64,000 nt of DNA, from the NCBI GenBank assembly GCA_023229365.1, contig JALNZK010000012.1, positions 3,472-67,471 on the forward strand, read 5' to 3'. The first letter of the stretch is position 1. Every line of letters begins with the position of its first letter. The notes beneath the pieces are model-generated. The model had not been told where the DNA came from and did not search any database. It was given only the letters and a program-made list of their open reading frames with translations. The translations under genes were made by a program, and so were the position numbers. Below, one piece after another: positions 2 to 52,385 of the stretch. Origin of the DNA: Pseudomonadota bacterium (lineage in GTDB: Bacteria > Myxococcota_A > Polyangia > JAAYKL01).

Positions 2-1624
2 GAGCGCGAGGGCGACTACGCCCTGGTCGCGACGACGCCGAGCTCGAGCACCGAGTACATCACCAGCCAGGAAGACATCTTCGCCAAGCTCCCGATAGGC
101 GCGCTGAACCTCGCCGCCGAGTTCCGCGCCGGAGACAGGTGGTCGCTCGACTACGTCATCGTCGGGATGCGGCGGGCGCGGACTGCGGCGTTCGGCCGCG
201 ACGCGCTCTCCGTCGGGTGCGCGCGTGCGACGCACTTCGTTTCCGGCATGGCGATAGGCGCGTACCGCCTCGTGTCCGAAGCGCGCCGCCGAGCGGGCGT
301 GGAGGCAGGCGTTTCCGGCGCGGGCGCCGGCGCGTCGACCGCTGCGGGCGCGGGCACGCTGCGCCAGGACGGCTTCCCGGAGACGTGCGCCGGCGAGCAG
401 GCGCGCGCCGACGATCCGCGCTGCCAGGCGATCGTGCAGCTGTTCCTCGAGCCTTTAGGCGAACGGGCCGCGGACGAGCAGCCGGCGGCCCCCGCGAGCG
501 GCGCCGGGGCGGGCGCGGCGACCCCGCCTGTCGCCGTGACGCAGAAGGGCGCCGCCAGCTACGGCGCGCAGCTCGAGGGGGCGTGGGCCGCGCTGCGCGA
601 CAAGGCGAAGGGCGCCGATCTGGAGCGTCGGCTCGAGCTGTACCAGCGGTTCCTCAGCGACTACCCGGTGGAGAACCCGCACGCGGCCGGCGCGCGGCAG
701 GAGATCGCGCGCATCGACGACGCGCTCGCGGCGAGGGCAGCGGCAGAGGGTGCGGACGCCGAGAAGGAGAGGAAGCTCGCCGCCGAGCGCGAGCGGGCGA
801 CGCTGATCCGTGAGGCGTACGAGGCCGCGCGCGGGGCGAAGGGCAGCGCGGCCGAACGGCTGGCGATCTGGAAGCGGTTCATCCAGGCCTACCCGGGAGA
901 GGACAACCCGTACCTGAAGACCGCGATCCGCGAGGCGAAGCGGCTCTCCGCGCAGGGCGAGACGTCGTCGAAGGAGGTCGGTCCCGCGGGCGTGGAGTGG
1001 GTCTACTCGGCTCCCGCCGGCGTGCGCTTGACGCGGAGCGAGATCACGGTGGAGCAGTACCGGGCGTGCGTGGGCGCCGGGGCCTGCTCGTCGGCGGGCC
1101 TCGGCGTGCCGTTCGACGGCGCCGTCGAGCGCCCGGAAGCGGCGGCGACGTGCAACTGGGGAAAGGCCGGCCGCGGGAAGCACCCGATGAACTGCATCGA
1201 TTGGCGGCAGGCGGTGGCGGTGTGCGCCTGGCTCGGCGGCAGGCTGCCGACGGAGGAGGAGTGGGCCGCGGAGGCGTCCGACGCCGGCGGGCGTCTGTGG
1301 CCGTGGGCCGGGGCCGCCGGCGTCTCCTGCGATAGGGCGGTGTGGGGCGGGGGCGCCGAGGGGGACGGCTGCGGCCGCGGTGCGACCTGGCCGGTCTGCT
1401 CGAAGCGCGGCGGCGACAGCGCCTCCGGGCTCTGTGACGTCGTCGGCAACCTCTGGGAGTGGACGAGCTCGGCCTACGACGGCGAGCACGACTGGCGCGT
1501 GCAGCGCGGCGGCTCCTGGCACACGGGCGATCCGTCGCTGGCGACCGCGCAGGTGCGGGGCAGCGCCGGTCCGACGCAACGGGACGGGTACACAGGCGTG
1601 CGCTGCGCGCGGACCGGGAGCTGA
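2..1624 (+). CDS. 5'-partial protein with C-terminal formylglycine-generating-enzyme (FGE-sulfatase/SUMF1) domain. The frame is open from the window edge.
   Basis: Frame 2 has no stop from nt 2. The C-terminal region carries FGE motifs (RLPTEEEW, NLWEWT, GGSWH, GVRCAR). The N-terminal part has TPR-like repeats. Confidence 0.75.
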   Translation, partial: EREGDYALVATTPSSSTEYITSQEDIFAKLPIGALNLAAEFRAGDRWSLDYVIVGMRRARTAAFGRDALSVGCARATHFVSGMAIGAYRLVSEARRRAGVEAGVSGAGAGASTAAGAGTLRQDGFPETCAGEQARADDPRCQAIVQLFLEPLGERAADEQPAAPASGAGAGAATPPVAVTQKGAASYGAQLEGAWAALRDKAKGADLERRLELYQRFLSDYPVENPHAAGARQEIARIDDALAARAAAEGADAEKERKLAAERERATLIREAYEAARGAKGSAAERLAIWKRFIQAYPGEDNPYLKTAIREAKRLSAQGETSSKEVGPAGVEWVYSAPAGVRLTRSEITVEQYRACVGAGACSSAGLGVPFDGAVERPEAAATCNWGKAGRGKHPMNCIDWRQAVAVCAWLGGRLPTEEEWAAEASDAGGRLWPWAGAAGVSCDRAVWGGGAEGDGCGRGATWPVCSKRGGDSASGLCDVVGNLWEWTSSAYDGEHDWRVQRGGSWHTGDPSLATAQVRGSAGPTQRDGYTGVRCARTGS

Positions 1625-4974: not shown

Positions 4975-5961
4975 GTGATCCACGAACCTTCCCTTTCGGA
5001 AAGCGACATCCTCGACGTCTGGCGCTGGGTCGTGGAGGACGGCGATCGCGGTGCGCGGCTCGACAAGTTCCTGTCCCGCCAGGAAGACGTCGAGATCACG
5101 CGATCGCAGCTGAAGCGGGTCATCGACGCGGGGTTCGCGCGCGTCGACGGAACGGCCGCACGCCCGGCGAGACTCCTTCGGCCCGGTCAGATCGTCGAGT
5201 TGCGCGTGCCGCCCCCCGAGCCGCTCTCGGCCGAGCCCGAGCCGATCCCGATCGAGATCCGCTACGAGGACGAGCACGTCGTGGTCGTCGACAAGCCGCA
5301 GGGGCTCGTCGTGCACCCGGCCCCGGGCCACGCGCGCGGGACGCTCGTGAACGCCCTGCTGCACTGGTGCGCGCCGCGGGGAGGCGATCCGCTTCGCCCG
5401 GGCATCGTCCACAGGCTCGACAAGGACACCTCCGGGTTGATGGTCGTCGCCAAGACCGAGGCGGCCCACGCGCACCTCGCGGTGCAGTTCCACGAGCACA
5501 CCGTAGATCGACGCTACCGGGTCCTCGTTTCCGGGACGCCTCCGGATCGCGGCGAGTGGCGCACGCTGCACGGCAGGCGCGAGGGCGATCGCAAGCTGTT
5601 CAGCTCGCGGGTGAGGCGCGGCAGGAGCGCGGTGAGCGCTTTCGAGACCGTGGAGCGTTTCCCCGCCGGGCCGGCGGCGATGCTCGCCGTGACGCTGTCG
5701 ACCGGGCGGACCCACCAGGTGCGCGTGCATTGTGCGGACCACGGCCTTCCGGTGCTCGGCGATCGCGCGTACGGCCCCAAGCACCTCCAGCCCGCCCTGC
5801 GCGCGGTCCACGATGCGCTCCCCGGACAGGCGCTCCACGCCGAGTTGCTGGGGTTCGACCATCCGATCCTCGGACGGCGGATGACGTTCACGAGCGAGCC
5901 GAACCCCGCGTTCTCGGCCGCGCTCGACGCGCTGCGCCACCTCGGCGAGGCGATCGGCTGA
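4975..5961 (+). CDS. rluD: RluA-family 23S rRNA pseudouridine synthase (RluD/RluC-like) with an N-terminal S4 domain
   Basis: Motifs HRLDKDTSGLMVVAKT and GRTHQIRVH; S4-like N-terminus. Confidence 0.85.
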   Translation: MIHEPSLSESDILDVWRWVVEDGDRGARLDKFLSRQEDVEITRSQLKRVIDAGFARVDGTAARPARLLRPGQIVELRVPPPEPLSAEPEPIPIEIRYEDEHVVVVDKPQGLVVHPAPGHARGTLVNALLHWCAPRGGDPLRPGIVHRLDKDTSGLMVVAKTEAAHAHLAVQFHEHTVDRRYRVLVSGTPPDRGEWRTLHGRREGDRKLFSSRVRRGRSAVSAFETVERFPAGPAAMLAVTLSTGRTHQVRVHCADHGLPVLGDRAYGPKHLQPALRAVHDALPGQALHAELLGFDHPILGRRMTFTSEPNPAFSAALDALRHLGEAIG

Positions 5962-6197
5962 CCGACCCCGAGCCTTCACTTCCATCTGTTGGTTCGAATA
6001 TTGCTTCCGACGGGAGACGGATTTTGCCGAAAAGATGACAAGACTGTTATAAGTACGCGAAAATCCAGGAATGATGGAACGGAGAATCGACAAGCTCGGG
6101 ACGAGGTGTTGCTGAAACGACACGCTTGCAGTGTGGCAAACGCGTGTCACTGTGACTTTTTGATACAGTTTCGAATTGGAATATGAGGAATTTCGAG
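5962..6197 (+). promoter_or_regulatory. AT-rich (roughly 45% GC) intergenic leader upstream of the cytidylyltransferase-transaminase fusion gene
   Basis: A marked GC drop relative to the ~70% GC surroundings. A GAGGA RBS lies before the ATG at 6198. Confidence 0.25.
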
Positions 6198-8063
6198 ATG
6201 AAGCGCGCTATCGTACTCGCGGATGAACGAAGTGCTAGAATCGTAAATGGTTCCGGGCATATGAAGGCTCTGGCGAAGGTGGGCGGACTGCCGCTCATCA
6301 TCCGGAACCTCCGGACCCTGCACGCGGCGGGCGTCGAGGAAGCGATCGTCGTCACCGGCTATCAGGACCAGCGCGTGCGGCGAGCGCTCGAGAGCTATCA
6401 CCTCGGCATCAAGGTCACCGTGGTGCACAACGAGAACTGGCACCTCGGCAGCGCCCACTCCCTGATCGCCGCTTCGGGGTGGATCGAGGACCAGACGATA
6501 CTCGTTCCGTCGGACCACATGTACCCGCCGTCGCTCGTGCGGCGCGTCATCCACTGCCCGGTCGCCGCGGACTCGGTGCTGCTCGCGGTGGACCGACGCC
6601 GCGACGAGGTGTTCGACGAGGAGGAGTGCATCAAGGTCCGGCTCAAGGGCGATCTCGTCACCGATCTCGGGACCGACCTTGACGACGCGGATGGCGTCTG
6701 TCCGGGGCTCGTGCGGATCTCCGCACAGCTCGTGGAGCGCCTGCGGCGGCTGCTGCACGACGTCGACATCGATCTCCTCGACGCGCTCCGCGCCATGGCC
6801 CGACGCGGCCAGGTGCGCACGCTGGACGTCGAGAACGCCCGGTGGATCAGCATCTCGAGCCCGCAGGCGCGCCGCTACGCCGAGCTGCTCCTGCAGCTCC
6901 ATGGCGACACGCTCGAGACTGCCTACGCCGGGGAGCACGCCGTGCTGCTGAACCCCGGTCCCGTGGTGACAACACCGCGCGTCAAGGCCGCCGTCGGGGC
7001 GCGCGACATGTGCCACCGCGAGCCGATCTTCTCGAGCCTGTTCGATTCCGTGACGCGGAAGATGAAGACGGTGTTCTGCGCGGACAAGGACCACGACGTG
7101 CTCGTCGTCACCGCGTCGGGCACGGGCGGCATGGAGTCGGCGATCAACACGTTCGTCCCGGCGACCGGGAAGTTCCTCGTGATCAGGAACGGCGCGTTCG
7201 GCGAGCGGCTGGCCGAGATCGCGCGGACGCACGGCATCGCGGTCGAGGAGATCGCGCTGTCCTGGGGCGCACCGATCCCGCTCGACGAGGTGGAGCGCCT
7301 GCTCGACGCGCGGCCCGACATCAAGGCCGTGGGCATCGTGCACCACGAGACCTCGGTCGGCGTGCTGAACCCGGTCGCCGCCGTGGGCGCCATGACGCGC
7401 AAGCGGGGGGTGACGCTCATCGTGGACACGGTTTCGAGCCTCGGGGCCGAGGACGTCGACGTTGTGCGCGACAACATCGACGTGTGCGTCGCGAGTGCCA
7501 ACAAGTGCCTGCACGCGTTCGCCGGCCTCGTATCGGTCTGCGTTCGCCGGGACGTTTGGCAGACCATCGAGGGCGACAAGCCGCGGTCGTACTACCTGGA
7601 TCTGCGAAGGTACCGCGCGTTCCTCAGGGACCGCTGCCAGACGCCCTTCACGCCGGCGGTCAACACGATGATGTCGCTCAACGCGGCGCTGGACGAGCTG
7701 CTCGAGGTCGGGCTCGTCGGACGGCGCAACCACTACGTGCGCCTGAACGATCGCATCCGGCGCGGGCTCCTGTCGCTCGGCATGGACCTGGTCGACGAGG
7801 AGCGCTCGTCGCACAGCATCACGGTCGTCAAGGTGCCGGACGGCATGACGTACCAGGACATTTACCTCGGCCTCAAGGATCGCGGGTTCATCGTCTACGA
7901 GAGCAAGGGCGCCATGTCCGGGGGGTACTTCCAGGTCGCCAACATGGGCGCGCTCGAGGAGATCCACATCGACGAGTTCCTCGCCGCCATGGGGCAGGTG
8001 CTCGCCGAGGCACGCCACGGCTCGCTCGTCTCCGCCGCCGCCGGGGCGCTGCGGCTCGTCTGA
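6198..8063 (+). CDS. bifunctional nucleotidyltransferase (LicC/PntC-like cytidylyltransferase) fused to 2-aminoethylphosphonate:pyruvate aminotransferase (PhnW-like, class V)
   Basis: The N-terminal ~240 aa resemble an NTP-transferase (KALAKVGGLPLI..AIVVTGY). The C-terminal ~360 aa resemble PhnW (LLNPGPVVTTPRVKAA; SANKCL active-site Lys region). Confidence 0.7.
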   Translation: MKRAIVLADERSARIVNGSGHMKALAKVGGLPLIIRNLRTLHAAGVEEAIVVTGYQDQRVRRALESYHLGIKVTVVHNENWHLGSAHSLIAASGWIEDQTILVPSDHMYPPSLVRRVIHCPVAADSVLLAVDRRRDEVFDEEECIKVRLKGDLVTDLGTDLDDADGVCPGLVRISAQLVERLRRLLHDVDIDLLDALRAMARRGQVRTLDVENARWISISSPQARRYAELLLQLHGDTLETAYAGEHAVLLNPGPVVTTPRVKAAVGARDMCHREPIFSSLFDSVTRKMKTVFCADKDHDVLVVTASGTGGMESAINTFVPATGKFLVIRNGAFGERLAEIARTHGIAVEEIALSWGAPIPLDEVERLLDARPDIKAVGIVHHETSVGVLNPVAAVGAMTRKRGVTLIVDTVSSLGAEDVDVVRDNIDVCVASANKCLHAFAGLVSVCVRRDVWQTIEGDKPRSYYLDLRRYRAFLRDRCQTPFTPAVNTMMSLNAALDELLEVGLVGRRNHYVRLNDRIRRGLLSLGMDLVDEERSSHSITVVKVPDGMTYQDIYLGLKDRGFIVYESKGAMSGGYFQVANMGALEEIHIDEFLAAMGQVLAEARHGSLVSAAAGALRLV

Positions 8064-8070
8064 GCACGAC

Positions 8071-8108
8071 GGGCGCGGGAGGAGAACCGGCGCGCCCCTT
8101 CTACTTCT
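8071..8108. terminator. putative bidirectional rho-independent terminator between convergent genes
   Basis: GC-rich inverted repeat GGGCGCG...CGCGCCC followed by a T-rich tract (CTTCTACTTCTT). Confidence 0.4.
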
Positions 8109-9906
8109 TGAACAGGGCGTGGAGGTCGGCGAGCGCTGCCGAACGGCTCTTCTTCTCGCCGCCGCCGGACTGCCCGGATGACGGGCCCGAGCGCGGGCCG
8201 CCGGTCGTCTCGACCATGGGGGGCAGGGCGTGCTGCCCGCTCTCCCGCCGCGGCGCCTGGGACCGCTCTCCGGGCACCGGCGCGGGCTTGAGGGAGAGCG
8301 CGATGCGGTTCTTCTCCGGGATCACCTCGGGCACGCGTGCCGTGACGCTCTGGCCGATCCGCACGACCTGCGACGGCTCGTCCACGAACTCGGTCGAGAG
8401 CTGCGACACGTGGATCATCGCCTCCGTGGACAGCCCGATGTTGACGAAGGCGCCGAACCGCGTGAGGTTCGTGACGACGCCGTCCACCACCATCCCCGGC
8501 TTCAGATCGCGGACGGTCTTCACGAGCGGGTTGAGGCGCTTGATCGTCCGCACCGCCTGGGATCGGTGTCCTCCTCCGTCGGCCGCCAGCGCCGCGCCGC
8601 CCTTGCGCCGGACGCGCCGCGCCCAGCCCGCGATGAGGCGCGCCTCGGACAGCACGGCGTCGAGCTTCTCGGGATCGAGATCGGTGGAGTACTCGCCGAG
8701 GCCCAGCGCGCCCGGCGCCACCTTCCCGAACTCGCTTGTCGGGCGCTGCGCGCGCCTCCCGAGCACGACGGCCGCTCCGATCGCCTGTGGGAGCTCGACG
8801 TCCAACTCCTCGCGCGCCTCCTTGAGCGCGCCCGTATGCACGCGTGTCACCGGGAGCTCGCCGAGGGCCGCGACCGCCGTGTTCAGGCGATCCGTGTCGC
8901 CCGCGGATATCGGCAGCGCCGCGGCTTCGGGCTTGTGCTCCTCGACGAGCGCCGCGACAGCGGCCGGGAGGTCCTCGCCGCCGGGGATGATCCGGGTGGC
9001 GACGGGGACGCCCGCCTTGTCGATCACCGCGGCGCCGATGGGCGAGCTCACGCTCCCGACGTACAGCGCGAGCAGCGGCTCGACCTTGACCGGCGGCGCG
9101 GTCAGGAGACCGAGGTAGGCGAGGCTCGCGGAGCGCAGCGCCTCCGACTCGGCCCGGTGATCGAGCTGGACGCGGATCGCCCGCTCGAGGTTGCCGAGGA
9201 CGAGCTCCTCGAGGACGCCGTCCGAGCCGCGCTTCTGCGCGCAAAGCCCGAGCGAGGGGAGGCGGGCCTCGGACTGCTCGCGGATCTCGTCGTGCGGCAG
9301 AATCAGCGAGATCCGGAGGATCCCCGCGCGCTCGCCGCGTCGGGCGCCGAGCCATTGGTAGCCGCGGATCTCCGCGATGCCGATCTTCGAGGTGGCGTGC
9401 GACGAGAACTGGTCTGCGTCCGGGTGGTCTGGCGCCGCGACCTCGATCCGGATCCATCCGGCGCGCAGCGACAGCTCGACGCTCGCCCGCCACAGCTCCA
9501 CGTGTCCGTCGAGCGCCTTGCCCCACGCGTCGTGATCCGGGTGGGACGCGCGCTGGCACATCCGCGCGGCCCGCTCGAGCGCGCCCAGCTCCTGCGGCGT
9601 GGTCGCGATCTTCATGGCGCCGTCCGGGAGCTTCAGACCGCTCTGGCCGAGAACGCGTCGCAGCTCGCGGGCGGCCCCTTTCCACGCGGCGAACGCTCGG
9701 TGGGCGTCCGCGAGCTCGCACAGCCGGGCCGCCGGGAACGGGGCCAGGGATGCGTCGTTGCCCTCCAGGAGCGGCGCGATGCCGTCCGCCTGGTCGAGGG
9801 CACGACCGATCCTCTGGAGCGCGTCACGCTCGCAAGAGTCGTAGAGGCTGCGGTTCAACCGCTTTGTCAGCTCGATGAAATCCATGCTATTCGCGTTGTG
9901 TATCAC
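8101..9906 (-). CDS. Tex-like RNA-binding protein with a C-terminal S1 domain
   Basis: Clear S1 domain (GMVVDGVVTNLTRFGAFVNIG...IHVSQLS...RIGQSVTARV). The overall architecture resembles transcription accessory protein Tex. Confidence 0.6.
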   Translation of the reverse strand: MIHNANSMDFIELTKRLNRSLYDSCERDALQRIGRALDQADGIAPLLEGNDASLAPFPAARLCELADAHRAFAAWKGAARELRRVLGQSGLKLPDGAMKIATTPQELGALERAARMCQRASHPDHDAWGKALDGHVELWRASVELSLRAGWIRIEVAAPDHPDADQFSSHATSKIGIAEIRGYQWLGARRGERAGILRISLILPHDEIREQSEARLPSLGLCAQKRGSDGVLEELVLGNLERAIRVQLDHRAESEALRSASLAYLGLLTAPPVKVEPLLALYVGSVSSPIGAAVIDKAGVPVATRIIPGGEDLPAAVAALVEEHKPEAAALPISAGDTDRLNTAVAALGELPVTRVHTGALKEAREELDVELPQAIGAAVVLGRRAQRPTSEFGKVAPGALGLGEYSTDLDPEKLDAVLSEARLIAGWARRVRRKGGAALAADGGGHRSQAVRTIKRLNPLVKTVRDLKPGMVVDGVVTNLTRFGAFVNIGLSTEAMIHVSQLSTEFVDEPSQVVRIGQSVTARVPEVIPEKNRIALSLKPAPVPGERSQAPRRESGQHALPPMVETTGGPRSGPSSGQSGGGEKKSRSAALADLHALFKK

Positions 9907-9960
9907 TATCCCGGGAACGTGGAACGACGCGGCCGGGAGTGTGAATCTTGTTGGCGAACT

Positions 9961-10548
9961 CTATCTGCCGCGGACGCAGCGGGCGCGGCAGTCATAATCG
10001 AAGCGTACCGCCAAATCGTTGGACGCGCCAGAGGTAATGCCGACGATGACGCCGCGCTTGTCGCCGCGCCGCGTCGAGGTCCACATCACGTAGGGCTCTT
10101 CCTTGAGCTTGCCGGACGCGAACGCCGCGACCGCCTCCTCCTCGGTCGGGAGGCGCCAGTCGTCCTTGTCGGCGAGCACCAGCTTCTCGCAGTACGCCTT
10201 GGCCGCGGCGAGGTTGACGTTCTCGCCGTTGTGGTACTGCTGGACCCACATCCCGTCGAGCTCGAAGTACGCCTGCATCTGGTCGGCGAGCGCCTTCTCC
10301 TCGGCCGCGGCGGCGGCCGCGACGCGCGCGGCGGAGGAGGCGGCCTCGGCGGCCCGGGCCTGCTCGATCTGCCGCATGCAGGTCGCGTCGTCCGCGCACC
10401 CGTCGTCCTCGCAATCGAGGAGGCCGTCGTTGTCCTGATCGACGTTGTCCACGCAGTCGTTGGCGCCCTTGCCCTCGGGGCCGGCCATGCAGGAAGAGAG
10501 GGCGAGCGCACCGAACGCAAGGCCGAGCGTCTTTCGCATGTTCTTCAC
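9961..10548 (-). CDS. lipoprotein with a DUF1566 (Lcl C-terminal-like) domain
   Basis: Signal peptide and lipobox (LALSSC). DWRLPT motif typical of DUF1566. Confidence 0.6.
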   Translation of the reverse strand: MKNMRKTLGLAFGALALSSCMAGPEGKGANDCVDNVDQDNDGLLDCEDDGCADDATCMRQIEQARAAEAASSAARVAAAAAAEEKALADQMQAYFELDGMWVQQYHNGENVNLAAAKAYCEKLVLADKDDWRLPTEEEAVAAFASGKLKEEPYVMWTSTRRGDKRGVIVGITSGASNDLAVRFDYDCRARCVRGR

Positions 10549-10598
10549 TCCAGCATCATGGTCGCGCCCGCGCGGAGCGCGGCGGCTCGGGCGATCGG

Positions 10599-10683
10599 CG
10601 GAGAGATAGGGATTCGAACCCTAGGTACCTTGCGGTACACACGATTTCCAGTCGTGCACCTTCGGCCACTCGGTCATCTCTCC
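10599..10683 (-). tRNA. tRNA-Ser (anticodon GGA), no encoded CCA
   Basis: Reverse complement folds as a cloverleaf with a long variable arm: GGAGAGATGACCGAGTGGCCGAAGG...anticodon loop CTGGAAA...GGTTCGAATCCCTATCTCTCCG. Confidence 0.9.
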
Positions 10684-10713
10684 TTTTCCAAAGAGTGCGG
10701 GCTTGACGCCCGG

Positions 10714-10799
10714 CGGAGAGAGTGGGATTCGAACCCACGGAGGTAGTTAGCCTCACACGATTTCGAATCGTGCGCCTTCGGCCACTCGGCCATCTCTCC
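10714..10799 (-). tRNA. tRNA-Ser (anticodon CGA), no encoded CCA
   Basis: Reverse complement GGAGAGATGGCCGAGTGGCCGAAGGCGCACGATTCGAAATCGTG...GGTTCGAATCCCACTCTCTCCG with a long variable arm. Confidence 0.9.
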
Positions 10800-10858
10800 G
10801 CCGCGCAAAATATATGCGGGCAGATGGCGCGTCAAGTGCCGTGGGGGGTGTCTGCGCC

Positions 10859-11809
10859 TCAGAACCCCACGCCAACGCCCATCTGGGCGCTCATGGTGTA
10901 CCGCCCCTCCTCGGGGAACACGTAGTTGTCGTCCTGTTTCGTGGGCTTCATGGGGAGGTACCCGGCGACGAAGATGTCGAAATCGAAGTCGTAGAGCCGG
11001 AACATCCTGACGCCGATGCGCCCGAAGGCGTGGGGTGCGAAGTCGTTGATGGTGTCGATTCCGCCGCCCAACTCCTCCGCCCGCCGCTCGAACCTCAGGT
11101 ACTGCAGGCCGAGGCCGAGGGCGAAGTAGAAGGTCGCGGCCGCGTTCGCGCTCAGCTCGTACCCGATCCCGACGTCGGCGCCGGCCGCTATCTTGAGCAC
11201 GGGCTTGTCCTCCTCGGCCTCCTTCGGCCAGCCCGAGAAGGTGAGCCGCCCGAACACCTGCCAGTGCCTCGCCCCGCGCGTGACGCCGAACGCACCGCCG
11301 GGCACGAACTCGGCGCCCGAGCCCGTGCGGTACGCCGCCTGGAACAGCTCGAACCGCCAGACGTTGACGCCCTGCACGGCCATGGCGTGGCTCGCCCGCT
11401 CGATGGCGGAGAGCTTCGTGATGTCCTCGGCGAGGGAGACCGGGTCGTTGCCGAGGACGAGCGACATCGCCTCGGAGACCCGCGCGGGGAGGGAGTCTCC
11501 CTTGCCGATCGTGAACCGGATCGGGACGTTCTCGTCGAGCCGCATCGTCAGCTGCTGGCTGCCGCCGACCCGGAACAGCTCGACCGTGAGCGCGACCCGG
11601 CAGTCGGCCCCGACGAGCGCGTGGCTCGGGTGGCGCGCGAGCTCGATCTCGACGAGCTTCAAGAGCCCCGGCTGCATTTTCGGATCGTCCGCCTGGACGG
11701 TCAGGCAGGTCGTCACCGCCGCGGCGCGCCCGCCGCATGGCAGGGCGACGATCGCGAGGAGCGCGAGCGCAGCGGCGAGCAGCGGGCCATGTGGTGCGCG
11801 GTTCGGCAC
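10859..11809 (-). CDS. outer-membrane beta-barrel protein (hypothetical), ending in C-terminal Phe
   Basis: GTG start with a GAGGAGAGG RBS, signal peptide, alternating amphipathic strands, and the C-terminal motif VGVGF. Confidence 0.6.
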   Translation of the reverse strand: MPNRAPHGPLLAAALALLAIVALPCGGRAAAVTTCLTVQADDPKMQPGLLKLVEIELARHPSHALVGADCRVALTVELFRVGGSQQLTMRLDENVPIRFTIGKGDSLPARVSEAMSLVLGNDPVSLAEDITKLSAIERASHAMAVQGVNVWRFELFQAAYRTGSGAEFVPGGAFGVTRGARHWQVFGRLTFSGWPKEAEEDKPVLKIAAGADVGIGYELSANAAATFYFALGLGLQYLRFERRAEELGGGIDTINDFAPHAFGRIGVRMFRLYDFDFDIFVAGYLPMKPTKQDDNYVFPEEGRYTMSAQMGVGVGF

Positions 11810-11829
11810 GTCGTCCTCTCCTCGCTCCG

Positions 11830-13164
11830 CTAGAACACCACGCCGAGCTTCAGCGACACGCCCGGGAACCACGTGCGCAGCTTGCCCGAGGTGTCCTCGG
11901 TCTGGGCCACGTAGGCCGGGGCGTTGATCTCGCCCTGGAGGTAGAACTGCACCGCCGACGCGCGCATGAACTCCCAGCCGATCACGCCGTCGATGTCGAG
12001 GCCGCCTGTAACGAGCGTGGAGCGCGTGTCGTCGTGATCGCGGTGATCCACGTCCTTGATCGCCCGGAACCACAGGAGCTCGAAGGTCGCGCCCGCGCCC
12101 AGGTAGAAGGAGCTCAGGCCGCGCGGATCGAAGTAGTGGAGGAAGTGCACGGCCATTCCCGCGTCACCACCGAGGTCGATGTGGCCGCCTTCCGGGTTCT
12201 CGTCGACCGAGGTCGACTGGGTGCCGATGCCGATCTGGGCCATCGCCTCGAGCCCCCAGTTCTCGAAGCGCCCGCGGTACCCGAGCCCGGCCTTGAGGGG
12301 GCTGAACACGCGGATCTTCGACTCCGTGCCGCCCTCGTTCGCGCCGCTCTCGATCGCCGAGTCGATCTGGCCGCCCCGCAGCTGCGTGCCCAGGATGAGC
12401 ACGAAGTGGTTCGACCCCTTGACCCGCTGGACGGACTTCTGCGAGTCGGACCTGAGCACGTTCTCGCGGTTGATGGTGTCACTGATCGGGACGTCGTCGA
12501 GGAGCGCGAGCACGGCGCGCTCCGCGTACTGGCTGAGCTCCGAGGGGAAGAGCTGATCCACCCGCTCCTCGCGGCCGGTGCCGCTGTAGCGCGCGAACAC
12601 GGTCCACCCCTCGCGCAGCGGATACAGCTCGACGACGATCCGCTGCTCGCACTTGTCGTCGACGGCGACGTAGCCGGGCTGGTGCGTGACGAAGTGCTCG
12701 AAGAGCCGCTTCAGGTAGACGACGGAGGTCTGGCCGAAGGGCAGCTTCGTGTCGCTCGTCCACAGCGGGATGGGCCCGCGGCCGGGCTTCGGCGGCCCCT
12801 CGGCCGGCGGGAAGGAAGGCCTAGGCGGCGCGGCCTTGCGCCCGCTCGGCGTGATCGGGAAGCCCTTCCCGGAGGGAGGGCCGGGCAGGAGCGCCGCGTC
12901 CTGTCCGTCGGGAGGCGGCTCGCCCGGGACCAGCGCCGGCGCCTCCGCTTCCGTGGGCGAAGCGGCCTCCGCTTCGGGCGCGGCCTCCTGGGCCACGGGT
13001 TGCTCCTCCCCGGCGGCGTCCTTCGAAGGCGCGGCCTGTCCGGCGCTGTCGTCCAGCCGCTCGACGACCTGTACGCACACCTTGACGTCCGCGGCGGACG
13101 CCGGCGCCGACGCGAGCATCAGTGCGGCGAGCGCGGCACAGCCGATGGCGAGTTCGTGTTTCAT
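11830..13164 (-). CDS. outer-membrane beta-barrel protein (hypothetical), paralogous architecture to the downstream gene
   Basis: Signal peptide MKHELAIGCAALAALMLASAPASA, an acidic/Pro-rich linker, then a beta-barrel ending LKLGVVF. Confidence 0.6.
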   Translation of the reverse strand: MKHELAIGCAALAALMLASAPASAADVKVCVQVVERLDDSAGQAAPSKDAAGEEQPVAQEAAPEAEAASPTEAEAPALVPGEPPPDGQDAALLPGPPSGKGFPITPSGRKAAPPRPSFPPAEGPPKPGRGPIPLWTSDTKLPFGQTSVVYLKRLFEHFVTHQPGYVAVDDKCEQRIVVELYPLREGWTVFARYSGTGREERVDQLFPSELSQYAERAVLALLDDVPISDTINRENVLRSDSQKSVQRVKGSNHFVLILGTQLRGGQIDSAIESGANEGGTESKIRVFSPLKAGLGYRGRFENWGLEAMAQIGIGTQSTSVDENPEGGHIDLGGDAGMAVHFLHYFDPRGLSSFYLGAGATFELLWFRAIKDVDHRDHDDTRSTLVTGGLDIDGVIGWEFMRASAVQFYLQGEINAPAYVAQTEDTSGKLRTWFPGVSLKLGVVF

Positions 13165-33838: not shown

Positions 33839-35353
33839 TCACGGCGATCGCCGGCCCGGCAGGCGCATGAGCGCGAGGTGCGCGGCGCGGAGCCACCGCG
33901 GCGTGCGCAGGACCGCCTCACGGATCGCCGGGTGCCATAGCACGCGCTCCTTGAGGAACGCCCGCGCCTCGTCGCGGGGCGAGCGGCCGCCGCAGGTGAA
34001 CGGCCGATAGAGCCGCAGCGCGGCGTCCTCGATCGGGAACTCCCCGAGCGAGATGCCGTGCTCCTCGGCCCGCTCGGTCAGCTCGCAGGAGCTCGGGAGG
34101 TTGAACAGCGACAGGTTGAGGAAGTCGACGTGGCGATGGTTGCGCGCGAGCAGCTCGAGCGTGGCCTCGCGATCCGCGTCGGTCTCGCCCGGCAGGCCGA
34201 ACAGGAGGTATAGGTACGTCCGGATGCCCGCGCCGGCGACCGCGGCGATCACGCGCTCCGCCTCCGCCGGGTCGACGCCCTTGTCGAACCGCCCGAGCAG
34301 CGCGCCGCTCCCGCTCTCCACGCCGAGCTGCAGCATCAGGCAACCGGCGTCCGCTGCGGCGTCTACGAGGGAGCCGCGCAGGAGCTGCCGGGTCGGCCGG
34401 GCGAAGCCGTAGAACGCGGCGCCCGCCGCCTTCGCGAGCGGCAGGAAGCGCCGCAGGGGGCCCGGCGGGATCGCGGAATCGACGAGGTGCACGACGGGTC
34501 GCGCCGCAAAGACCGAGGCCGGGACCGACCCGAAGAACCGCTCGAGCGACGCGGCGGGGACGCCTCGATAGGGCAGCGCGCGATCCGGGCAGAACCGGCA
34601 CCGCCGCCAGTAGCAGCCGCTGCTCAGGGCGAGCGGCACGATCGGCCGCGCCGAGAGGTACGGATCCTTTGCGAGCATCCGCGGCCACGCGAGCGTGTCC
34701 AGGAGCGGGCGGCGCGCGTCCCCGCCGAGCAGCGCGGAGCCGTCCCCGAGATCGACGGGGCCGATCGCGGCCCTGAGCGCGTCGAGCCCTGCGCCCGTCG
34801 CCGCGAGGCTCCGCGGGAGCGAGCCCCCGACCGCGTAGCGCGCGCCGTTGCGATCGAGGAAGCGGACGAGATCGATCGCCGCCGGGAGCTGCGAGAGGTA
34901 CGCGAGCGACACGAGCACGCGGCGCGGCCGCTCCGCCTCGAGCACCGGCCGGAGCGACTCCTCCCACAGCTCCGAGAACGGGCTCGGGTTCTCGGCGAGC
35001 CATCGCGCCACCGCCGCTGGGTCGTGGACGCGGACCGGCGGCTCGAGATCCATGAGCGTCAGCCGCCAGCCCGGGTGCCGCTCGCCGAACGGCCGGAGCC
35101 TTCTGTGGAGCTGCCCGACGGCGGAGCGGTGCCTGTCGGGCTCGTACCCCGATCGCGCGTCGAGGAGGTAGCGCAAGGCGGCCTCGCCGACGCGGCCCTC
35201 TCCCCGCCGCAGCTCGCGCCAGAAGAACGCGAGCGACAGGTCGAGGAGCGCGACGTCCCGCCCGGCGCCGGCGAGCCCTGCGGCGAGCAGGAAGGCGCCT
35301 GCGGCGGGCTCGGCCGGCGAGTGGACCGGGGGCGTGAGCACGAGCTCGTCCAT
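33839..35353 (-). CDS. B12-binding radical SAM protein
   Basis: N-terminal cobalamin-binding-like domain, then CYWRRCRFC (CxxxCxxC) with a glycine-rich SAM motif. Confidence 0.75.
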   Translation of the reverse strand: MDELVLTPPVHSPAEPAAGAFLLAAGLAGAGRDVALLDLSLAFFWRELRRGEGRVGEAALRYLLDARSGYEPDRHRSAVGQLHRRLRPFGERHPGWRLTLMDLEPPVRVHDPAAVARWLAENPSPFSELWEESLRPVLEAERPRRVLVSLAYLSQLPAAIDLVRFLDRNGARYAVGGSLPRSLAATGAGLDALRAAIGPVDLGDGSALLGGDARRPLLDTLAWPRMLAKDPYLSARPIVPLALSSGCYWRRCRFCPDRALPYRGVPAASLERFFGSVPASVFAARPVVHLVDSAIPPGPLRRFLPLAKAAGAAFYGFARPTRQLLRGSLVDAAADAGCLMLQLGVESGSGALLGRFDKGVDPAEAERVIAAVAGAGIRTYLYLLFGLPGETDADREATLELLARNHRHVDFLNLSLFNLPSSCELTERAEEHGISLGEFPIEDAALRLYRPFTCGGRSPRDEARAFLKERVLWHPAIREAVLRTPRWLRAAHLALMRLPGRRSP

Positions 35354-47225: not shown

Positions 47226-47770
47226 CCGGCCGCGAGGCCGGCGTCGAACGCCTTGAGGTTGTCGTCGGCGGATCCCTTGGAGAGGGCGGCGACGATCGCG
47301 CGCACCTCGGCGCCGTCGAACGGCACCTCCTCGAGCGCGCAGAAGGAGCCCATGAGGTAGAGGTTGGCGGTAAGCGGCTTGCCCGCCGCGAGCGCGAGGC
47401 GGTCCGCGTCGAAGGAGCGGATCTTCACGCGGCTCCGCTCGAAGAGCGCCGAGACCGCGGGCGGCACGTGCGAGAGGTCGGGCGCGTTGACGAGGTAGAC
47501 CCCGCCCGGGCGCAGGAACTCGAGGTTGCGCAGCCCCTCCGTCTTCTCAAGGGCGACGAGCGCGTCGGCGGTCCCCGGGATCACCATCGAGCTCGCCTGA
47601 TCGCCCATCTTGAAGTGGGAGACCACCGAGCCGCCGCGTTGGCTCATGCCGTGCGTCTCGGCCCCCATCACCTTCTGGCCCCTGGCCATCGCGGCCTCGA
47701 ACAGGATCCGGCTCGCGAAGAGGATCCCCTGCCCGCCGACGCCCGCCAATACGACGTTGAAAGGTCTCAT
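47222..47770 (-). CDS. iorB: indolepyruvate:ferredoxin oxidoreductase, beta subunit
   Basis: VVLAGVGGQGILFASRIL; translationally coupled (ATGA) to iorA. Confidence 0.85.
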   Translation of the reverse strand: MRPFNVVLAGVGGQGILFASRILFEAAMARGQKVMGAETHGMSQRGGSVVSHFKMGDQASSMVIPGTADALVALEKTEGLRNLEFLRPGGVYLVNAPDLSHVPPAVSALFERSRVKIRSFDADRLALAAGKPLTANLYLMGSFCALEEVPFDGAEVRAIVAALSKGSADDNLKAFDAGLAAG

Positions 47771-49689
47771 GCGCGCTCCTCCCGATCCGCCTTCGCGATC
47801 TCGACGATGGCGCCGCGGTTGCACACCGCGACGCACTGCCCGCACTTGGCGCAGACGCGCGGGTCGATCGCGGTGAGGAAGCGGCCCTCCTTGCCGGGCA
47901 CGGGCGCGGCCGGCACGAGCGCCTGGCACTCGAAGGTCGTGCGGCAGAGCGCGCAGCCGTTGCACTTGTCGTTCACCTCGACGGCGTGCGTGTTGAGCTG
48001 CGCCGCGGTCTTCCTGTCGTTCAGGAGGCACGGGTGGCGCGAGACGATCACCGCGACGCGCCCGTCCGGGCCGCGGCAGTGGGCCTGCGCCTCCTTCAGC
48101 AGCGCCGTCATGCCTTCGAGGTCGTAGGGGTCGTGCACGCGGACGAACTGGACGCCGAGCCCGCGGCAGGCGTCCTCGATAGGCAGCACCGGCCCGATCG
48201 TCCCGTCCGCCTGCTGGCCGAGCGCGAGCGTCGGCTGCATGCCGGTCATCGCGGTGACGAAGTTGTCGAGCACGACGAGGACGTAGCGCGCGCCCGAGTT
48301 GATCGCGCCGGCGAGCGCCGGCAGCCCGGCGTGGTAGAAGGTCGAGTCGCCGATCGTCGCGACGATCGGCGGGATCTCGCCGCCGTCGTGGGCGTACGCG
48401 TGGTAGAAGCCGGTCGCCATGGAGATCGCGGCGCCCATGTCGTGGCAGGTGTCGACCGCGTCCAGGTTGAGGCCCAGCGTGTAGCAGCCGATGTCCGAGG
48501 TGTAGATCCCCTTCTTTCCGAAGGTCTTGCGGATCCCGTAGAACGCCGAGCGGTGCGGGCACCCCGGGCAGAGGCTCGCCGGACGGACCGGGAGCTTCAG
48601 GTCGGATACAACCGCAGCGGCGTCGGGGCTGGCACTCCACGGCGCGTCGACGATCCCGTGCGCGTGCAGCGCGCGGCCGAGCACCTCGGTGAGCACGCCC
48701 GCGGTCAGCTCGCCCTCGTCCGGCACCGTGCCGTCGCCGCGCCCCATCACGCTCCTTCTATCGCGGAGCTGGAGCTCGACGACCTGATCCGGCTCCTCGA
48801 CGACGAGCACGCGCTCGTACTTCGCGACGAACTCCTCCAAGATCCGCTGCGGGAGCGGGTAGACGGCGCCGACCTTGAGCATGGGCACGCGGTCGAGGAC
48901 GCCGCGCTCCGCCAGGATGTCGCGGATCGTCGCGAACGGGTTGCCCGCGGCGATGATCGCGAGCGGCGACTTCGCGCCGGGGTTCAGCACGGCGTTCCAC
49001 GGCGAGGACTCGAGCTCCAGGGCGATGCGGCGCAGCTTCTCGTTCAGCTTCTTGTGGAGCAGGAGGCGCCAGCGTGGCGTCGCGGCCCACCTGTGCGGAT
49101 CCTTCTCGAACTTCGCGGGGCGCCCCCCGCGCGCGGGCTCGCCGAGCTCACAGCTCTCGCGGCCGTGGCAGACGCGGAGCGACGGCCGGAGGATCACCGG
49201 GATCTCGTGCCGCTCCGAGAGCTCGAACGCGTACGGCACCATGCGGCGCGCCTCGTCCGGGGAGGACGGGTCGAGCACCGGGATCTTCGCGAAGAAGCCG
49301 AAGAGGCGCGTGTCCTGCTCGGTCTGCGACGAGTGCGGCCCGGGATCGTCTGCGCAGATGACGACGAAGCCGCCCTTCACGCCGATGTACGCCGAGCTCA
49401 TCATCGGATCGGCCGCGACGTTCAGGCCGACCTGCTTCATGATCACCGCGGCGCGCTTGCCCGTGTACGCCGCCGCGAGCGCCTCCTCGTAGGCGACCTT
49501 CTCGTTCGCGCTCCACTCGCCGTGGACCTTCACGCCCGCCGCCTTCGCGGCGCGGATGAACGAGGGGAGGATCTCGGAGCTCGGCGTGCCGGGGTACGAC
49601 ATCGCGAGCTGGCAGCCGGCCTCGACGAGGCCGCGTCCGATCGCCTCGTTGCCCAGAAGGACGACCTTCTTCTTCGGGGTTCCGCTCAT
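47767..49689 (-). CDS. iorA: indolepyruvate:ferredoxin oxidoreductase, alpha subunit (TPP-binding, two 4Fe-4S ferredoxin motifs)
   Basis: N-terminal KVVLLGNEAIGRG; CPGCPHR; C-terminal CNGCALC...CAKCGQCVAVC. Confidence 0.9.
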   Translation of the reverse strand: MSGTPKKKVVLLGNEAIGRGLVEAGCQLAMSYPGTPSSEILPSFIRAAKAAGVKVHGEWSANEKVAYEEALAAAYTGKRAAVIMKQVGLNVAADPMMSSAYIGVKGGFVVICADDPGPHSSQTEQDTRLFGFFAKIPVLDPSSPDEARRMVPYAFELSERHEIPVILRPSLRVCHGRESCELGEPARGGRPAKFEKDPHRWAATPRWRLLLHKKLNEKLRRIALELESSPWNAVLNPGAKSPLAIIAAGNPFATIRDILAERGVLDRVPMLKVGAVYPLPQRILEEFVAKYERVLVVEEPDQVVELQLRDRRSVMGRGDGTVPDEGELTAGVLTEVLGRALHAHGIVDAPWSASPDAAAVVSDLKLPVRPASLCPGCPHRSAFYGIRKTFGKKGIYTSDIGCYTLGLNLDAVDTCHDMGAAISMATGFYHAYAHDGGEIPPIVATIGDSTFYHAGLPALAGAINSGARYVLVVLDNFVTAMTGMQPTLALGQQADGTIGPVLPIEDACRGLGVQFVRVHDPYDLEGMTALLKEAQAHCRGPDGRVAVIVSRHPCLLNDRKTAAQLNTHAVEVNDKCNGCALCRTTFECQALVPAAPVPGKEGRFLTAIDPRVCAKCGQCVAVCNRGAIVEIAKADREERA

Positions 49690-49782
49690 GTTGCTCCCTC
49701 GGGTGCGGGGTCCGCTGCGTCCGCGCGTCACGAACTCGTGTGCCCGAAGAATACGTGAGGCGGGCCGCCGGCTGTCAAGAGA

Positions 49783-51380: not shown

Positions 51381-52385
51381 TTAGCGTTCGTTTGCGCACT
51401 GCGGGTCGTCGGCGAGGGGATCGCCCGAGACCGCGCTCGCGAGCGCGCGGCAGCCGGCGCAGCCCGGGAGGTCGCAGGCCGCGCAGCGCGGGCCCGAGAG
51501 GCGAGGGCGGATCGCGTCCGGCGCCCAGGCGGCGAGCCGCTCCCGGATCGCCGCGAACGGCTCCTCGAGGACGTTGCCGACGGCGATCGGCAGGCGCCGG
51601 CACGGGTACACCGTCCCGTCGGGCATGAGGCACATCGAGTCCGGCCCGAGGTTGCAAAGCGCGCCCGAGAGCGGCTCGTCGGCGCCCGGGCTCGTGTCCA
51701 CCCAGAACGCCCGGTGCGCGAGCAGATCCCCGGGCTCCGCGTCGACGCCGGCGGCGGCGGCGATCGCGCGCGCGGCCGCGCTCCACTCCCGCGGGCCGAG
51801 GAGATCGCCGCGCATGGCGGCGCCCCGCCCGAGCGGGACGAACCTCTCGAAGATGACGCCGGAAGCCCCGCTCTCCCGGGCCAGGTCGACGGCGGAGGCG
51901 ATCGACGCGGCGTTGCGTCTCGAGAGCGTGAGCATGAGCACGACCGGGCGACCGGTCGCGAGGAATCGCGGGAGGTTTTGCATCACCGCGTCGAAGTGGC
52001 CGGGCCAGCGCAGCGCATCGTCGATCCCACGATCGCCGCCCTCGATCGAGATCTTGAAGCACCCGAGCTTGGGGAGCGCCGCGATCTCGTCGAGGACCGC
52101 GCGATCGGCGATCGTCCCGTTCGTGATGACGTTCACCTCGTCGAGCGCCTCGTGGCGGTGCAGGGCGCCGAGAAGATCGGTGAGGCGCGGCTGGAGGAAC
52201 GGCTCGCCGCCGGTGACGTTGATCGAGACGCGGTGGTCGCGCAACCCGCCGAGCACTCGCCCGGCGACGTCGACGAGGCCGCCCAGCCCGAGCTCGCGCG
52301 CGCTCGTGAAGTCGGACTGATAGCAGTGCGCGCAGCTGCCGTCGCACCTGTCCGTCACGTGCCACTGGAAGCCGAATTCGCGCAT
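51381..52385 (-). CDS. radical SAM / SPASM-domain protein (short, 334 aa)
   Basis: N-terminal CDGSCAHC (CxxxCxxC); C-terminal SPASM cysteines CNLGPDSMC...PC and CAACDLPGCAGC. Confidence 0.8.
   Translation of the reverse strand: MREFGFQWHVTDRCDGSCAHCYQSDFTSARELGLGGLVDVAGRVLGGLRDHRVSINVTGGEPFLQPRLTDLLGALHRHEALDEVNVITNGTIADRAVLDEIAALPKLGCFKISIEGGDRGIDDALRWPGHFDAVMQNLPRFLATGRPVVLMLTLSRRNAASIASAVDLARESGASGVIFERFVPLGRGAAMRGDLLGPREWSAAARAIAAAAGVDAEPGDLLAHRAFWVDTSPGADEPLSGALCNLGPDSMCLMPDGTVYPCRRLPIAVGNVLEEPFAAIRERLAAWAPDAIRPRLSGPRCAACDLPGCAGCRALASAVSGDPLADDPQCANER

Follow-up and report, generated by a model that had tools for sequence, protein, structure and literature searches.

The 64-kb window analysed here, the whole stretch of 64,000 nucleotides (70% GC) of contig JALNZK010000012.1 from a genome placed in the Myxococcota_A, carries on its forward strand a gene for a 621-residue protein in which a nucleotidyltransferase (NTase)-like domain is fused to a class-V enzyme of the pyridoxal phosphate (PLP)-dependent type. 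This fusion had been predicted from the sequence to be the signature of CMP-2-aminoethylphosphonate synthesis, joining a PntC-like cytidylyltransferase to a 2-aminoethylphosphonate (AEP) transaminase. Our results argue against that assignment. We give about an even chance to a joint reading in which an active AepZ-like PLP enzyme of a variant form, here called Q-type, acts on a small phosphorylated amine or carbonyl precursor of a head group, is coupled to a non-catalytic N-terminal domain derived from an inositol-1-phosphate cytidylyltransferase (IPCT), and is transcribed from a sigma-54 promoter.

The open reading frame (ORF), the quoted peptide strings LLNPGPVVTT and SANKCL, and the order of the domains were all as originally predicted. 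Pfam placed NTP_transf_3 at residues 9-163 (2.1e-14) and Aminotran_5 at residues 272-571 (2.2e-21), and an AlphaFold2 model built with 24 homologs was confident for both domains (mean predicted local distance difference test, pLDDT, 87.8). The protein is laid out as follows:

6198..8063, + strand: coding sequence, NTase-like domain fused to class-V PLP enzyme, 621 aa plus stop
6198..6872, + strand: N-terminal domain, residues 1-225, IPCT/PntC-like nucleotidyltransferase fold with an eroded signature
6873..6935, + strand: interdomain linker, residues 226-246, pLDDT below 50 at residues 242-246
6936..8012, + strand: class-V aminotransferase-fold domain, residues 247-605, AepZ-like, Q-type

The architecture of an NTase followed by a class-V aminotransferase is already known from Tde1415, the solved PntC-AEP transaminase (PntC-AEPT) fusion of Treponema denticola (6PD1/6PD2; Rice et al. 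2019, PMC6697681). This was the best full-length match of the query both in sequence (6PD1, phmmer E 1.5e-51, query 2-596 against 3-603) and in fold (6PD1, Foldseek on the AlphaFold2 model, E 2e-50). The two proteins have identical domain order and the same length, are colinear over residues 2-596, and share the PLP lysine and aspartate, a C-x-R-E motif and a PRxYY/MRNYY motif; however, they are only 24% identical. In PntC the motif GXG(T/S)RX4-8PK is the pyrophosphate site, the backbone amides of the GXG glycines forming the pocket; the R15A, K25A and K153A variants of Tde1415 have less than 10% activity, and Glu104 and Glu196 bind the amine of AEP (Rice et al. 2019, PMC6697681).

The state of these motifs in the query was read from two alignments, one (A1) of 24 close and distant homologs and one of 79 family members plus Tde1415. 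Canonical relatives read LAAGRGSRLVNGSGIPKPL where the query reads LADERSARIVNGSGHMKAL, that is, LAAGRGSRL..PKPL against LADERSARI..MKAL, and the alignment is unambiguous because the flanks are identical. GXG(T/S)R is replaced by E10-R11-S12-A13-R14 (6225-6239), with the two glycines changed to E10 and S12 and the serine or threonine to A13, and PK is replaced by M22-K23, so that the whole signature GXG(T/S)R..PK of Tde1415 reads EXSAR..MK. Glu104 of Tde1415 aligns to Pro104 of the query, and its Glu196 region gave no reliable alignment. Towards the end of the domain, WREID of Tde1415, WLDVD of the relatives and WMDVD of IPCT become W216-I-S218-I-S220 (6843-6857), WLDVDTPQA of the canonical relatives being aligned to WISISSPQA. 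By homology to LicC Glu216, a metal-coordinating residue (Rice et al., PMC6697681), we infer that the acidic pair of this W-x-(D/E)-x-D motif would provide the metal ligands. Further IPCT motifs kept by the relatives are altered in clade A, the group of close relatives to which the query belongs (IGK to LGT, DxVDTG to DGVCPG). Residues R14, K23, D106, D132, D140 and K146 are kept.

The altered domain does not behave as a decaying one. Mean pairwise identity among 14 clade-A genomes, which range from 36 to 70% GC, was 68.5% for the N-terminal domain and 68.3% for the aminotransferase domain, and the altered motif blocks rank among the best-conserved stretches of the clade, suggesting that a function of the domain is under selection. 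From the motif states it would follow that the canonical NTP chemistry of the domain has been lost or radically rewired, and ligand sensing or scaffolding appears to be the most economical reading of its role. A second solved combination of an NTase fold with a dimeric class-V aminotransferase is the N-terminus of Mycoplasma penetrans MetRS (9OS7), where the tandem sets the oligomeric state and the NTase-like part shows little sequence resemblance to active NTases (PMC13215547). That structure was also a full-length fold match to the query model, although it is appended to a tRNA synthetase, is 18% identical and has an aminotransferase of the AGAT type rather than the AepZ type.

The closest sequence family of the domain also differs from that predicted. 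Searched alone against the PDB, it matched the IPCT structures 2XME (5e-12), 4JD0 (7.8e-12) and 4MND (2.6e-11) and, far more weakly, the PntC structure 6PD1 (2.5e-4), suggesting that by itself it is far more like IPCT than PntC. The predicted PntC-likeness is borne out for the full-length protein, for which 6PD1 is the best match, and is much weaker for the domain taken alone. The similarity to IPCT (A. fulgidus 2XME/4MND; 4JD0) runs over the entire domain; with the IPCT half of NF041135 (model positions 2-216) the query scored 76 bits and canonical relatives 110-131, the cut-off of the complete bifunctional model being 580. Family members with intact motifs have the IPCT sequences GDHxY, ATK, IGK and WxDVD and lie beside myo-inositol-1-phosphate synthase (MIPS) or a DIPPS-like transferase. 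In the query, by contrast, the G-loop, the lysine of IGK, DxVDTG and DxD are all replaced; moreover, the fused or separate partner of IPCT is DIPPS rather than an aminotransferase, and the window holds neither MIPS nor DIPPS.

The C-terminal domain has an intact PLP site, made of S307-G308-T309, D410, K436 (7503-7505) and T485. K436 (SANKCL) and D410 (IVDTVSS) align to the lysine and aspartate of 7E7G and Tde1415 and are invariant or nearly so in A1. Two arginines of PhnW and Tde1415 are replaced, one by P483 (7644-7646) and the other by Q579 (7932-7934), QTRFTPP having become QTPFTPA, and FRIANIG of Tde1415 or FRVGCIG of P. aeruginosa PhnW having become FQVANMG. P483 is invariant in the family; Q579 is found without exception in the 24 sequences of A1 and in every family member in which the motif is covered (73 of the 79 rows of the family alignment). 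The domain is called Q-type because this glutamine stands in place of the substrate-anchoring arginine. We take that arginine to be the counterpart of R340 of Salmonella PhnW, which reportedly anchors the phosphonate or carboxylate (Chen et al. 2002), and of the carboxylate-anchoring arginine of class-V aminotransferases.

The best NCBIfam aminotransferase model was TIGR03301 (PhnW-AepZ), in agreement with the predicted PhnW-like character of the domain, but its score of 308.1 bits was below the cut-off of 360.8. The other AepZ/PhnW models, TIGR02326 (209.3 against 400.8) and NF010006 (222.9 against 296), also stayed below threshold. The domain shares the fold of PhnW/AepZ (1M32, 7E7G, 9KK8; TM 0.94, root-mean-square deviation 1.5-1.6 Å) and its PLP-binding residues; it differs in these scores, in the Gln for the Arg of FR(V/I) and the Pro for the Arg of RFTPP, and in the lack of a phnX or ppm/ppd context. 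A search with the aminotransferase domain against 1.84 billion representatives returned 8519 relatives, and among the best 150 three forms coexist: Q-type (QTP[FNY]TP ... FQ[VI][AS]NMG), R-type and Tde-like. With TIGR03301, six Q-types scored 290-329 bits, three R-types 340-373 and a Tde-like control 420. The sole fusion with a phosphonopyruvate-decarboxylase-like thiamine pyrophosphate (TPP) enzyme in the best-150 sample was an R-type. These results suggest that the domain belongs to a sister group of the AEP transaminases and is not a member by the curated test. The one source-given name found for the stand-alone Q-type relatives was the JGI label 2-aminoethylphosphonate-pyruvate transaminase, which JGI also gives to homologs. 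Two R-type relatives in the representative library show further uncharacterised architectures of the AepZ-like superfamily: P0135 is fused to an amino-acid-kinase domain and P0136 to a 3-hydroxyisobutyrate-dehydrogenase-like NAD domain.

The genes of phosphonate synthesis were looked for around the fusion. Neither the phosphoenolpyruvate (PEP) mutase motif EDKxxxxxNS nor the looser pattern ED[KQ]x5[NS][ST] occurred in the six frames of the 64-kb window, and both patterns were likewise absent from the six frames of 84 related loci (flanks of up to 10 kb per side, as the contig allowed), giving 0 of 85 loci, window included, within about 10 kb. By comparison, Tde1415 is part of a ppm-ppd cluster, and of the nucleotidyltransferase genes closest to ppm, two-thirds are no more than five genes away (Rice et al., PMC6697681). 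Nearly all window genes supported by GC content at the third codon position (GC3) up to about 59 kb were scanned with Pfam; five called ORFs between 59248 and 63975 and a few overlapping calls of low GC3 lay outside the scan. Among the genes scanned there was no phosphonopyruvate decarboxylase; the sole TPP enzyme (47767-49731) consists of POR_N and TPP_enzyme_C and so looks like an indolepyruvate/2-oxoacid ferredoxin oxidoreductase (IorA-like). The same genes included no CDP-OH transferase, and tblastn of the window with MIPS, stand-alone NTase and alcohol dehydrogenase queries from relatives (the last from clade C, described below) found no MIPS, second NTase or alcohol dehydrogenase homolog. 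The fusion is a stand-alone gene with no PEP mutase or phosphonopyruvate decarboxylase in the window, as had been observed in the original prediction. A literature search on myxobacterial phosphonolipids found nothing relevant.

A true bifunctional PntC-AEPT, in which the aminotransferase makes AEP from phosphonoacetaldehyde and the N-terminal domain converts it to CMP-AEP for phosphonolipids or phosphonoglycans, with ppm and ppd elsewhere in the genome, seems to us quite unlikely. That 6PD1 is the top full-length match in sequence and fold, that TIGR03301 is the top aminotransferase family, that JGI labels homologs as 2-aminoethylphosphonate-pyruvate transaminase, and that R14, K23 and D106 are kept all speak for it. 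Against it stand the loss of the GXG(T/S)R consensus and of both acidic residues of WxExD, proline at the position of Glu104, an aminotransferase score under the curated cut-off with Q579 and P483 in place of arginine, the closer relation of the N-terminal domain to IPCT than to PntC, and the tally of PEP mutase motifs set beside the linkage reported by Rice et al. Since the NTase consensus, the acidic pair, the AepZ score with its anchoring arginine, and the linkage to ppm-ppd are all wanting, we have not filed the protein as a PntC-AEPT. The claim that the fusion marks CMP-AEP synthesis finds no support here, given the broken PntC consensus, the AepZ score below threshold, the missing arginine of FR(I/V) and the 84 related loci devoid of the PEP mutase motif. 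More speaks for the fallback offered with it, in which the fusion would act on another amino-phospho(no) substrate.

The aminotransferase domain could also be an AEP or phosphonoacetaldehyde transaminase, working in biosynthesis or in the scavenging of environmental AEP, beside a catalytically dead N-terminal domain; we regard this as unlikely. The domain is most like AepZ/PhnW, and its H273-R274 motif (CHRE) also occurs in Tde1415 (as CPRE) and in AepZ-like proteins of the R-type. In addition, a stand-alone Q-type aminotransferase outside the family (L085 8001-9107) has a GntR regulator, an ABC importer and a metallophosphoesterase as cluster neighbours, an arrangement reminiscent of a catabolic operon for aminoalkyl-phosph(on)ates. 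On the other hand, phnX, phnA, phnY, ppm and ppd were found neither among the scanned window genes nor among the recurring neighbour clusters of the 84 loci, every Q-type scored falls under the AepZ cut-off, and the anchoring arginine is lost.

The favoured reading of a Q-type enzyme with a non-catalytic partner domain draws on the wider family. A scan of one genome per species found a relative encoded in 375 genomes, and all 80 fetched loci of the family came from metagenome-assembled genomes of Myxococcota (labels Polyangia, Kofleriaceae and 'Deltaproteobacteria'). Neighbouring genes were called and clustered in all loci, and a neighbour-joining tree of the aminotransferase domains was annotated with the status of the NTase motif. 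The tree has four groups (a-d), with clade A of the query as a fifth. Of the 74 family members that it includes, only 7 keep all four catalytic features of the NTase.

In group (a) (L003, L020, L021) the four features are present and the fusion is divergently oriented beside MIPS. In group (b) (L040, L041, L043) they are also present and the fusion lies within an operon, which in L043, for example, spans 6772-11959 and contains PssA/archaetidylserine-synthase-like and DIPPS-like CDP-OH transferases, a metallophosphoesterase and the fusion. In the bifunctional IPCT/DIPPS model, the IPCT half is matched by the N-terminal domain of the group (b) fusion and the DIPPS half by the transferase next to it; the two halves of the archaeal bifunctional enzyme are here on separate genes. 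Outside the family, a stand-alone Q-type aminotransferase (L086 8001-9095) is convergent with an adjoining CDP-alcohol phosphatidyltransferase gene. Where the NTase motif survives, the partners point to CDP-alcohol and inositol-phosphate chemistry and not to phosphonates.

Group (c), from Kofleriaceae and sister to (b), has the G-loop and DxD deleted. Four of these loci (L076, L078, L080, L082) have a stand-alone canonical NTase beside or near the fusion, accompanied in L078 and L080 by MIPS and an IMPase-family gene. Other neighbours are GDPD (L076, L078, L080) and CDP-OH transferase genes (L075, L080, L082). A compact arrangement, L080 6090-12963, holds a CDP-alcohol transferase, the stand-alone canonical NTase, MIPS, an IMPase/CysQ-family phosphatase, the G-loop-deleted fusion and a GDPD phosphodiesterase, and parts of such a cluster occur in L076, L078 and L082. 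The L080 cluster looks like a complete pathway for a CDP-inositol-type head group or solute with an extra PLP enzyme. It may be compared with the putative CDP-inositol ('alternative') inositol-lipid cluster of Bacteroides vulgatus/Prevotella (Heaver et al. 2022, PMC9246714), whose MIPS, proposed CDP-inositol-forming NTP-transferase, CDP-alcohol phosphatidyltransferase and phosphohydrolase have parallels in the loci of the relatives. That cluster, however, is without an aminotransferase and itself lacks biochemical confirmation, and the query gene is not in such a cluster.

In group (d), the large clade C, the catalytic lysine is changed to asparagine (PNCL) and Arg15 is usually lost; a zinc-dependent alcohol dehydrogenase-family gene and then an isc operon (IscR-like, IscS, IscU, IscA, HscB, HscA) usually follow 3' of the fusion. 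In 28 loci of this clade (for example L001 9711-13008), a small ORF (about 100 aa) that matches nothing in Pfam is called directly 5' of the fusion start or overlapping it. In several of the clade-C loci a sigma-54-like element is found 31-71 nt 5' of the fusion start, inside this ORF, which may for that reason be spurious. Taken over the neighbour-joining tree, the motif states indicate that the NTase motif has been eroded at least three independent times, in different ways. Clade A shows conserved synteny with housekeeping genes only.

The leader of the gene carries signs of regulation. It was described originally as AT-rich and 236 bp long, and this is what we find (5962-6197, GC 0.48 against 0.70 for the window). 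Three features lie in it:

5990..6004, + strand: predicted sigma-54 (RpoN)-type -24/-12 promoter element TGGTTCGAATATTGC (GG-N10-GC), 208 nt 5' of the start codon
6107..6122, + strand: conserved inverted repeat of the presumed 5' untranslated region (UTR), TGTTGC-N-GACA here and TGTTGC-N6-GCAACA as family consensus
6146..6156, + strand: palindrome GTCACTGTGAC, about 55 nt 5' of the start codon

The strict sigma-54 pattern has a single match on both strands of the 64-kb window, at 5990-6004. Of 17 clade-A loci, 16 have TGG-N9-TGC between -191 and -246, several of them with the canonical TGGCAC-N5-TTGC, and comparable sigma-54-type elements also occur 5' of the gene in other clades. The inverted repeat was matched by regular expression at -86 to -95 in nine of the 17 loci and aligns in leader alignments A2 and A3; it may be a protein operator. 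The sequence TCA(C/G)TGTG of the palindrome is present at -55 to -59 in 10 of the 17 and occurs once only in the window. The one-base spacer of GTCACTGTGAC rules out an RNA hairpin and makes a DNA site likelier, more likely one for a dimeric regulator. Both boxes sit in a presumed UTR of about 180 nt, and they and the sigma-54 element are common to relatives at 62-78% protein identity.

A structured RNA or known riboswitch in the leader was considered and dropped. The covariance-model scan proposed originally gave no match to Rfam 15 over 5800-6400 on both strands at E <= 10, the single-sequence fold of the leader was no better than that of shuffled sequences (minimum free energy z-score -0.26), and the fold of the leader alignment had a consensus energy of -1.98 kcal/mol with almost no covariation, a weak support for RNA structure. 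The suggestion that the leader is a regulatory region is well served by the conserved sigma-54-type element, and the AT-rich leader most probably holds an RpoN promoter together with operator-like sites. A sigma-54 promoter would make expression depend on an enhancer-binding activator. The low-GC run extends about 100 nt into the coding sequence (6198-6300; GC 0.47-0.51 across 6001-6300) and spans the altered G-loop codons (GAT GAA CGA AGT GCT AGA ...). This low-GC start could reflect constraints on translation initiation or a regulatory element overlapping the start.

Put together, these observations suggest the following course of events. The N-terminal domain would descend from an inositol-1-phosphate or PntC-like cytidylyltransferase, and with its NTP- and metal-binding signature lost in this lineage the protein would probably yield no CMP- or CDP-activated product. 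Kept under purifying selection, the domain would most likely serve as a ligand-binding (regulatory) or scaffolding domain of a dimeric enzyme. For the aminotransferase domain the likeliest reaction is the interconversion of a small phosphorylated carbonyl compound with the corresponding amine, candidates being phosphoethanolamine-, serinol-phosphate- or inosamine-phosphate-like compounds. The gene would be transcribed from the sigma-54-dependent promoter predicted in its leader. The family would be part of a Myxococcota pathway making phosphorylated polar head groups or solutes by CDP-alcohol chemistry, with inositol-phosphate synthase, IPCT-like NTase, DIPPS-like and PssA-like transferases and phosphoesterases as partners, and would lie outside PEP-mutase-dependent phosphonate synthesis.

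Instead of being lost, NTase activity may have been rewired, with D9 and E10 taking over metal binding in a bifunctional enzyme that makes, for example, CDP-inositol or a CDP-aminoalcohol from the aminotransferase product. We think this improbable, but two carboxylates (D9, E10) were gained in the loop as two were lost (S218 and S220 now occupy the acidic pair), which keeps a rewired active site a live rival. The new residues are conserved in clade A (LAD(E/D/Q)RS), purifying selection on the altered blocks is strong, the six retained residues named above are in place, and canonical members of the family resemble IPCT and occur with MIPS and DIPPS-like genes. However, Glu and Ser at GXG should clash with the pyrophosphate pocket, the IGK and DxVDTG motifs are changed as well, and the window contains no MIPS or CDP-OH transferase. 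The eroded Kofleriaceae relatives, moreover, carry a separate canonical NTase, suggesting that the eroded domain is unable to do the NTase job.

We consider it very unlikely that the C-terminal domain is a PLP enzyme other than a transaminase, in which loss of the anchoring arginine would permit, for example, decarboxylation of phosphoserine to phosphoethanolamine, or an elimination. The invariance of Q579 at the carboxylate/phosphonate-binding arginine position of class-V enzymes and the association of the family with PssA-like and CDP-alcohol transferases are compatible with this. So is H273-R274, which resembles the phosphate-binding His-Arg of phosphoserine aminotransferase. The proposal is purely inferential, no class-V member with such an activity was identified in this analysis, the remaining catalytic residues are typical of transaminases, and the apparent catabolic cluster of L085 fits a transaminase better.

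Several further points weigh against the favoured reading, that of an active Q-type enzyme on a head-group precursor beside a non-catalytic IPCT-derived domain. The loss of NTase activity is deduced from the loss of motifs, and R14, K23, D106 and K146 are still present. The anchoring role of the arginine replaced by Q579 is drawn from Salmonella PhnW (R340) and the general literature on class-V aminotransferases. AepZ/PhnW leads the aminotransferase families by a wide margin (308 bits, the next unrelated family reaching 179), so that AEP or phosphonoacetaldehyde may yet be the substrate, and ppm and ppd could sit elsewhere in the genome, the search having covered 64 kb. The head-group contexts come from relatives at 40-47% identity and not from clade A, whose housekeeping neighbours give no word on function. 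A bolder version of the reading, with the chances against it, is that of a sigma-54-transcribed family in which the NTase was converted at least three times to a ligand-sensing domain while the Arg to Gln change gave a new PLP reaction or substrate feeding a CDP-alcohol branch. If so, the substrate might be an amino-cyclitol phosphate, serinol phosphate or phosphoethanolamine, and the branch, for a head group or compatible solute not known so far, would be under allosteric control by its own activated intermediate.

Automatic annotation names these proteins 2-aminoethylphosphonate transaminases. On that label the fusion would be taken to show that hundreds of Myxococcota genomes encode phosphonate biosynthesis, and soils and sediments could be credited with too many phosphonate producers. 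What the data point to instead is an uncharacterised pathway for a head group or solute, with inositol-phosphate and CDP-alcohol chemistry at its base. The interest of the family lies mainly in this correction and in the repeated conversion of an enzyme domain to a conserved pseudo-enzyme, which, occurring several times in one family, offers a tractable system for the study of pseudo-enzyme function. Myxobacteria make unusual lipids, among them ceramide phosphoinositol, according to work cited in PMC9246714. The fusion family and its partners are concrete candidates for the biosynthesis of unusual myxobacterial lipids of this kind. To our knowledge the biosynthetic genes for myxobacterial ceramide phosphoinositol have not been established.

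The reading frame of the fusion was listed as 6183..8063 (+ strand, 626 aa). A look-up of the exact protein sequence found no entry among public assemblies. Its GC3 of 0.91 is typical for a genuine gene in a window of this GC content, indicating that the ORF is real. The true start is ATG 6198, giving 621 aa, because the N-terminus MKRAI at the homologous ATG is kept in all clade-A relatives, homologs are 618-630 aa long, and a Shine-Dalgarno sequence GAGGA lies 8 nt 5' of this codon; the upstream ATG 6183 was ruled out by the N-termini of the relatives and the homolog lengths. An antisense ORF covering nearly the whole gene (6147..8018, - strand, 623 aa) was rejected as a shadow ORF because the GC3 signal and all homology are on the + strand; such ORFs are common in high-GC DNA. 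Between the two domains, the linker sequence HGDTLET is conserved in clade A.

The neighbours of the fusion in the window are housekeeping or unrelated genes. Upstream lie DUF2064, DUF1848 and an RluD-like pseudouridine synthase, whose stop is at 5961; downstream are a convergent S1-domain protein and an Lcl_C protein, followed by CoaBC, MlaEF, BioB, ThiF, Lgt and others. Elsewhere in the window, a radical SAM/SPASM protein (51381-52385, - strand) adjoins a 672-aa protein unmatched by Pfam (52450-54468), and 33839-35353 (- strand) encodes a further radical SAM protein, 504 aa long. Near the left end, 167-1624 (+ strand) encodes a protein of 485 aa that ends in an FGE-sulfatase (formylglycine-generating enzyme-like) domain and whose N-terminal half has no match.

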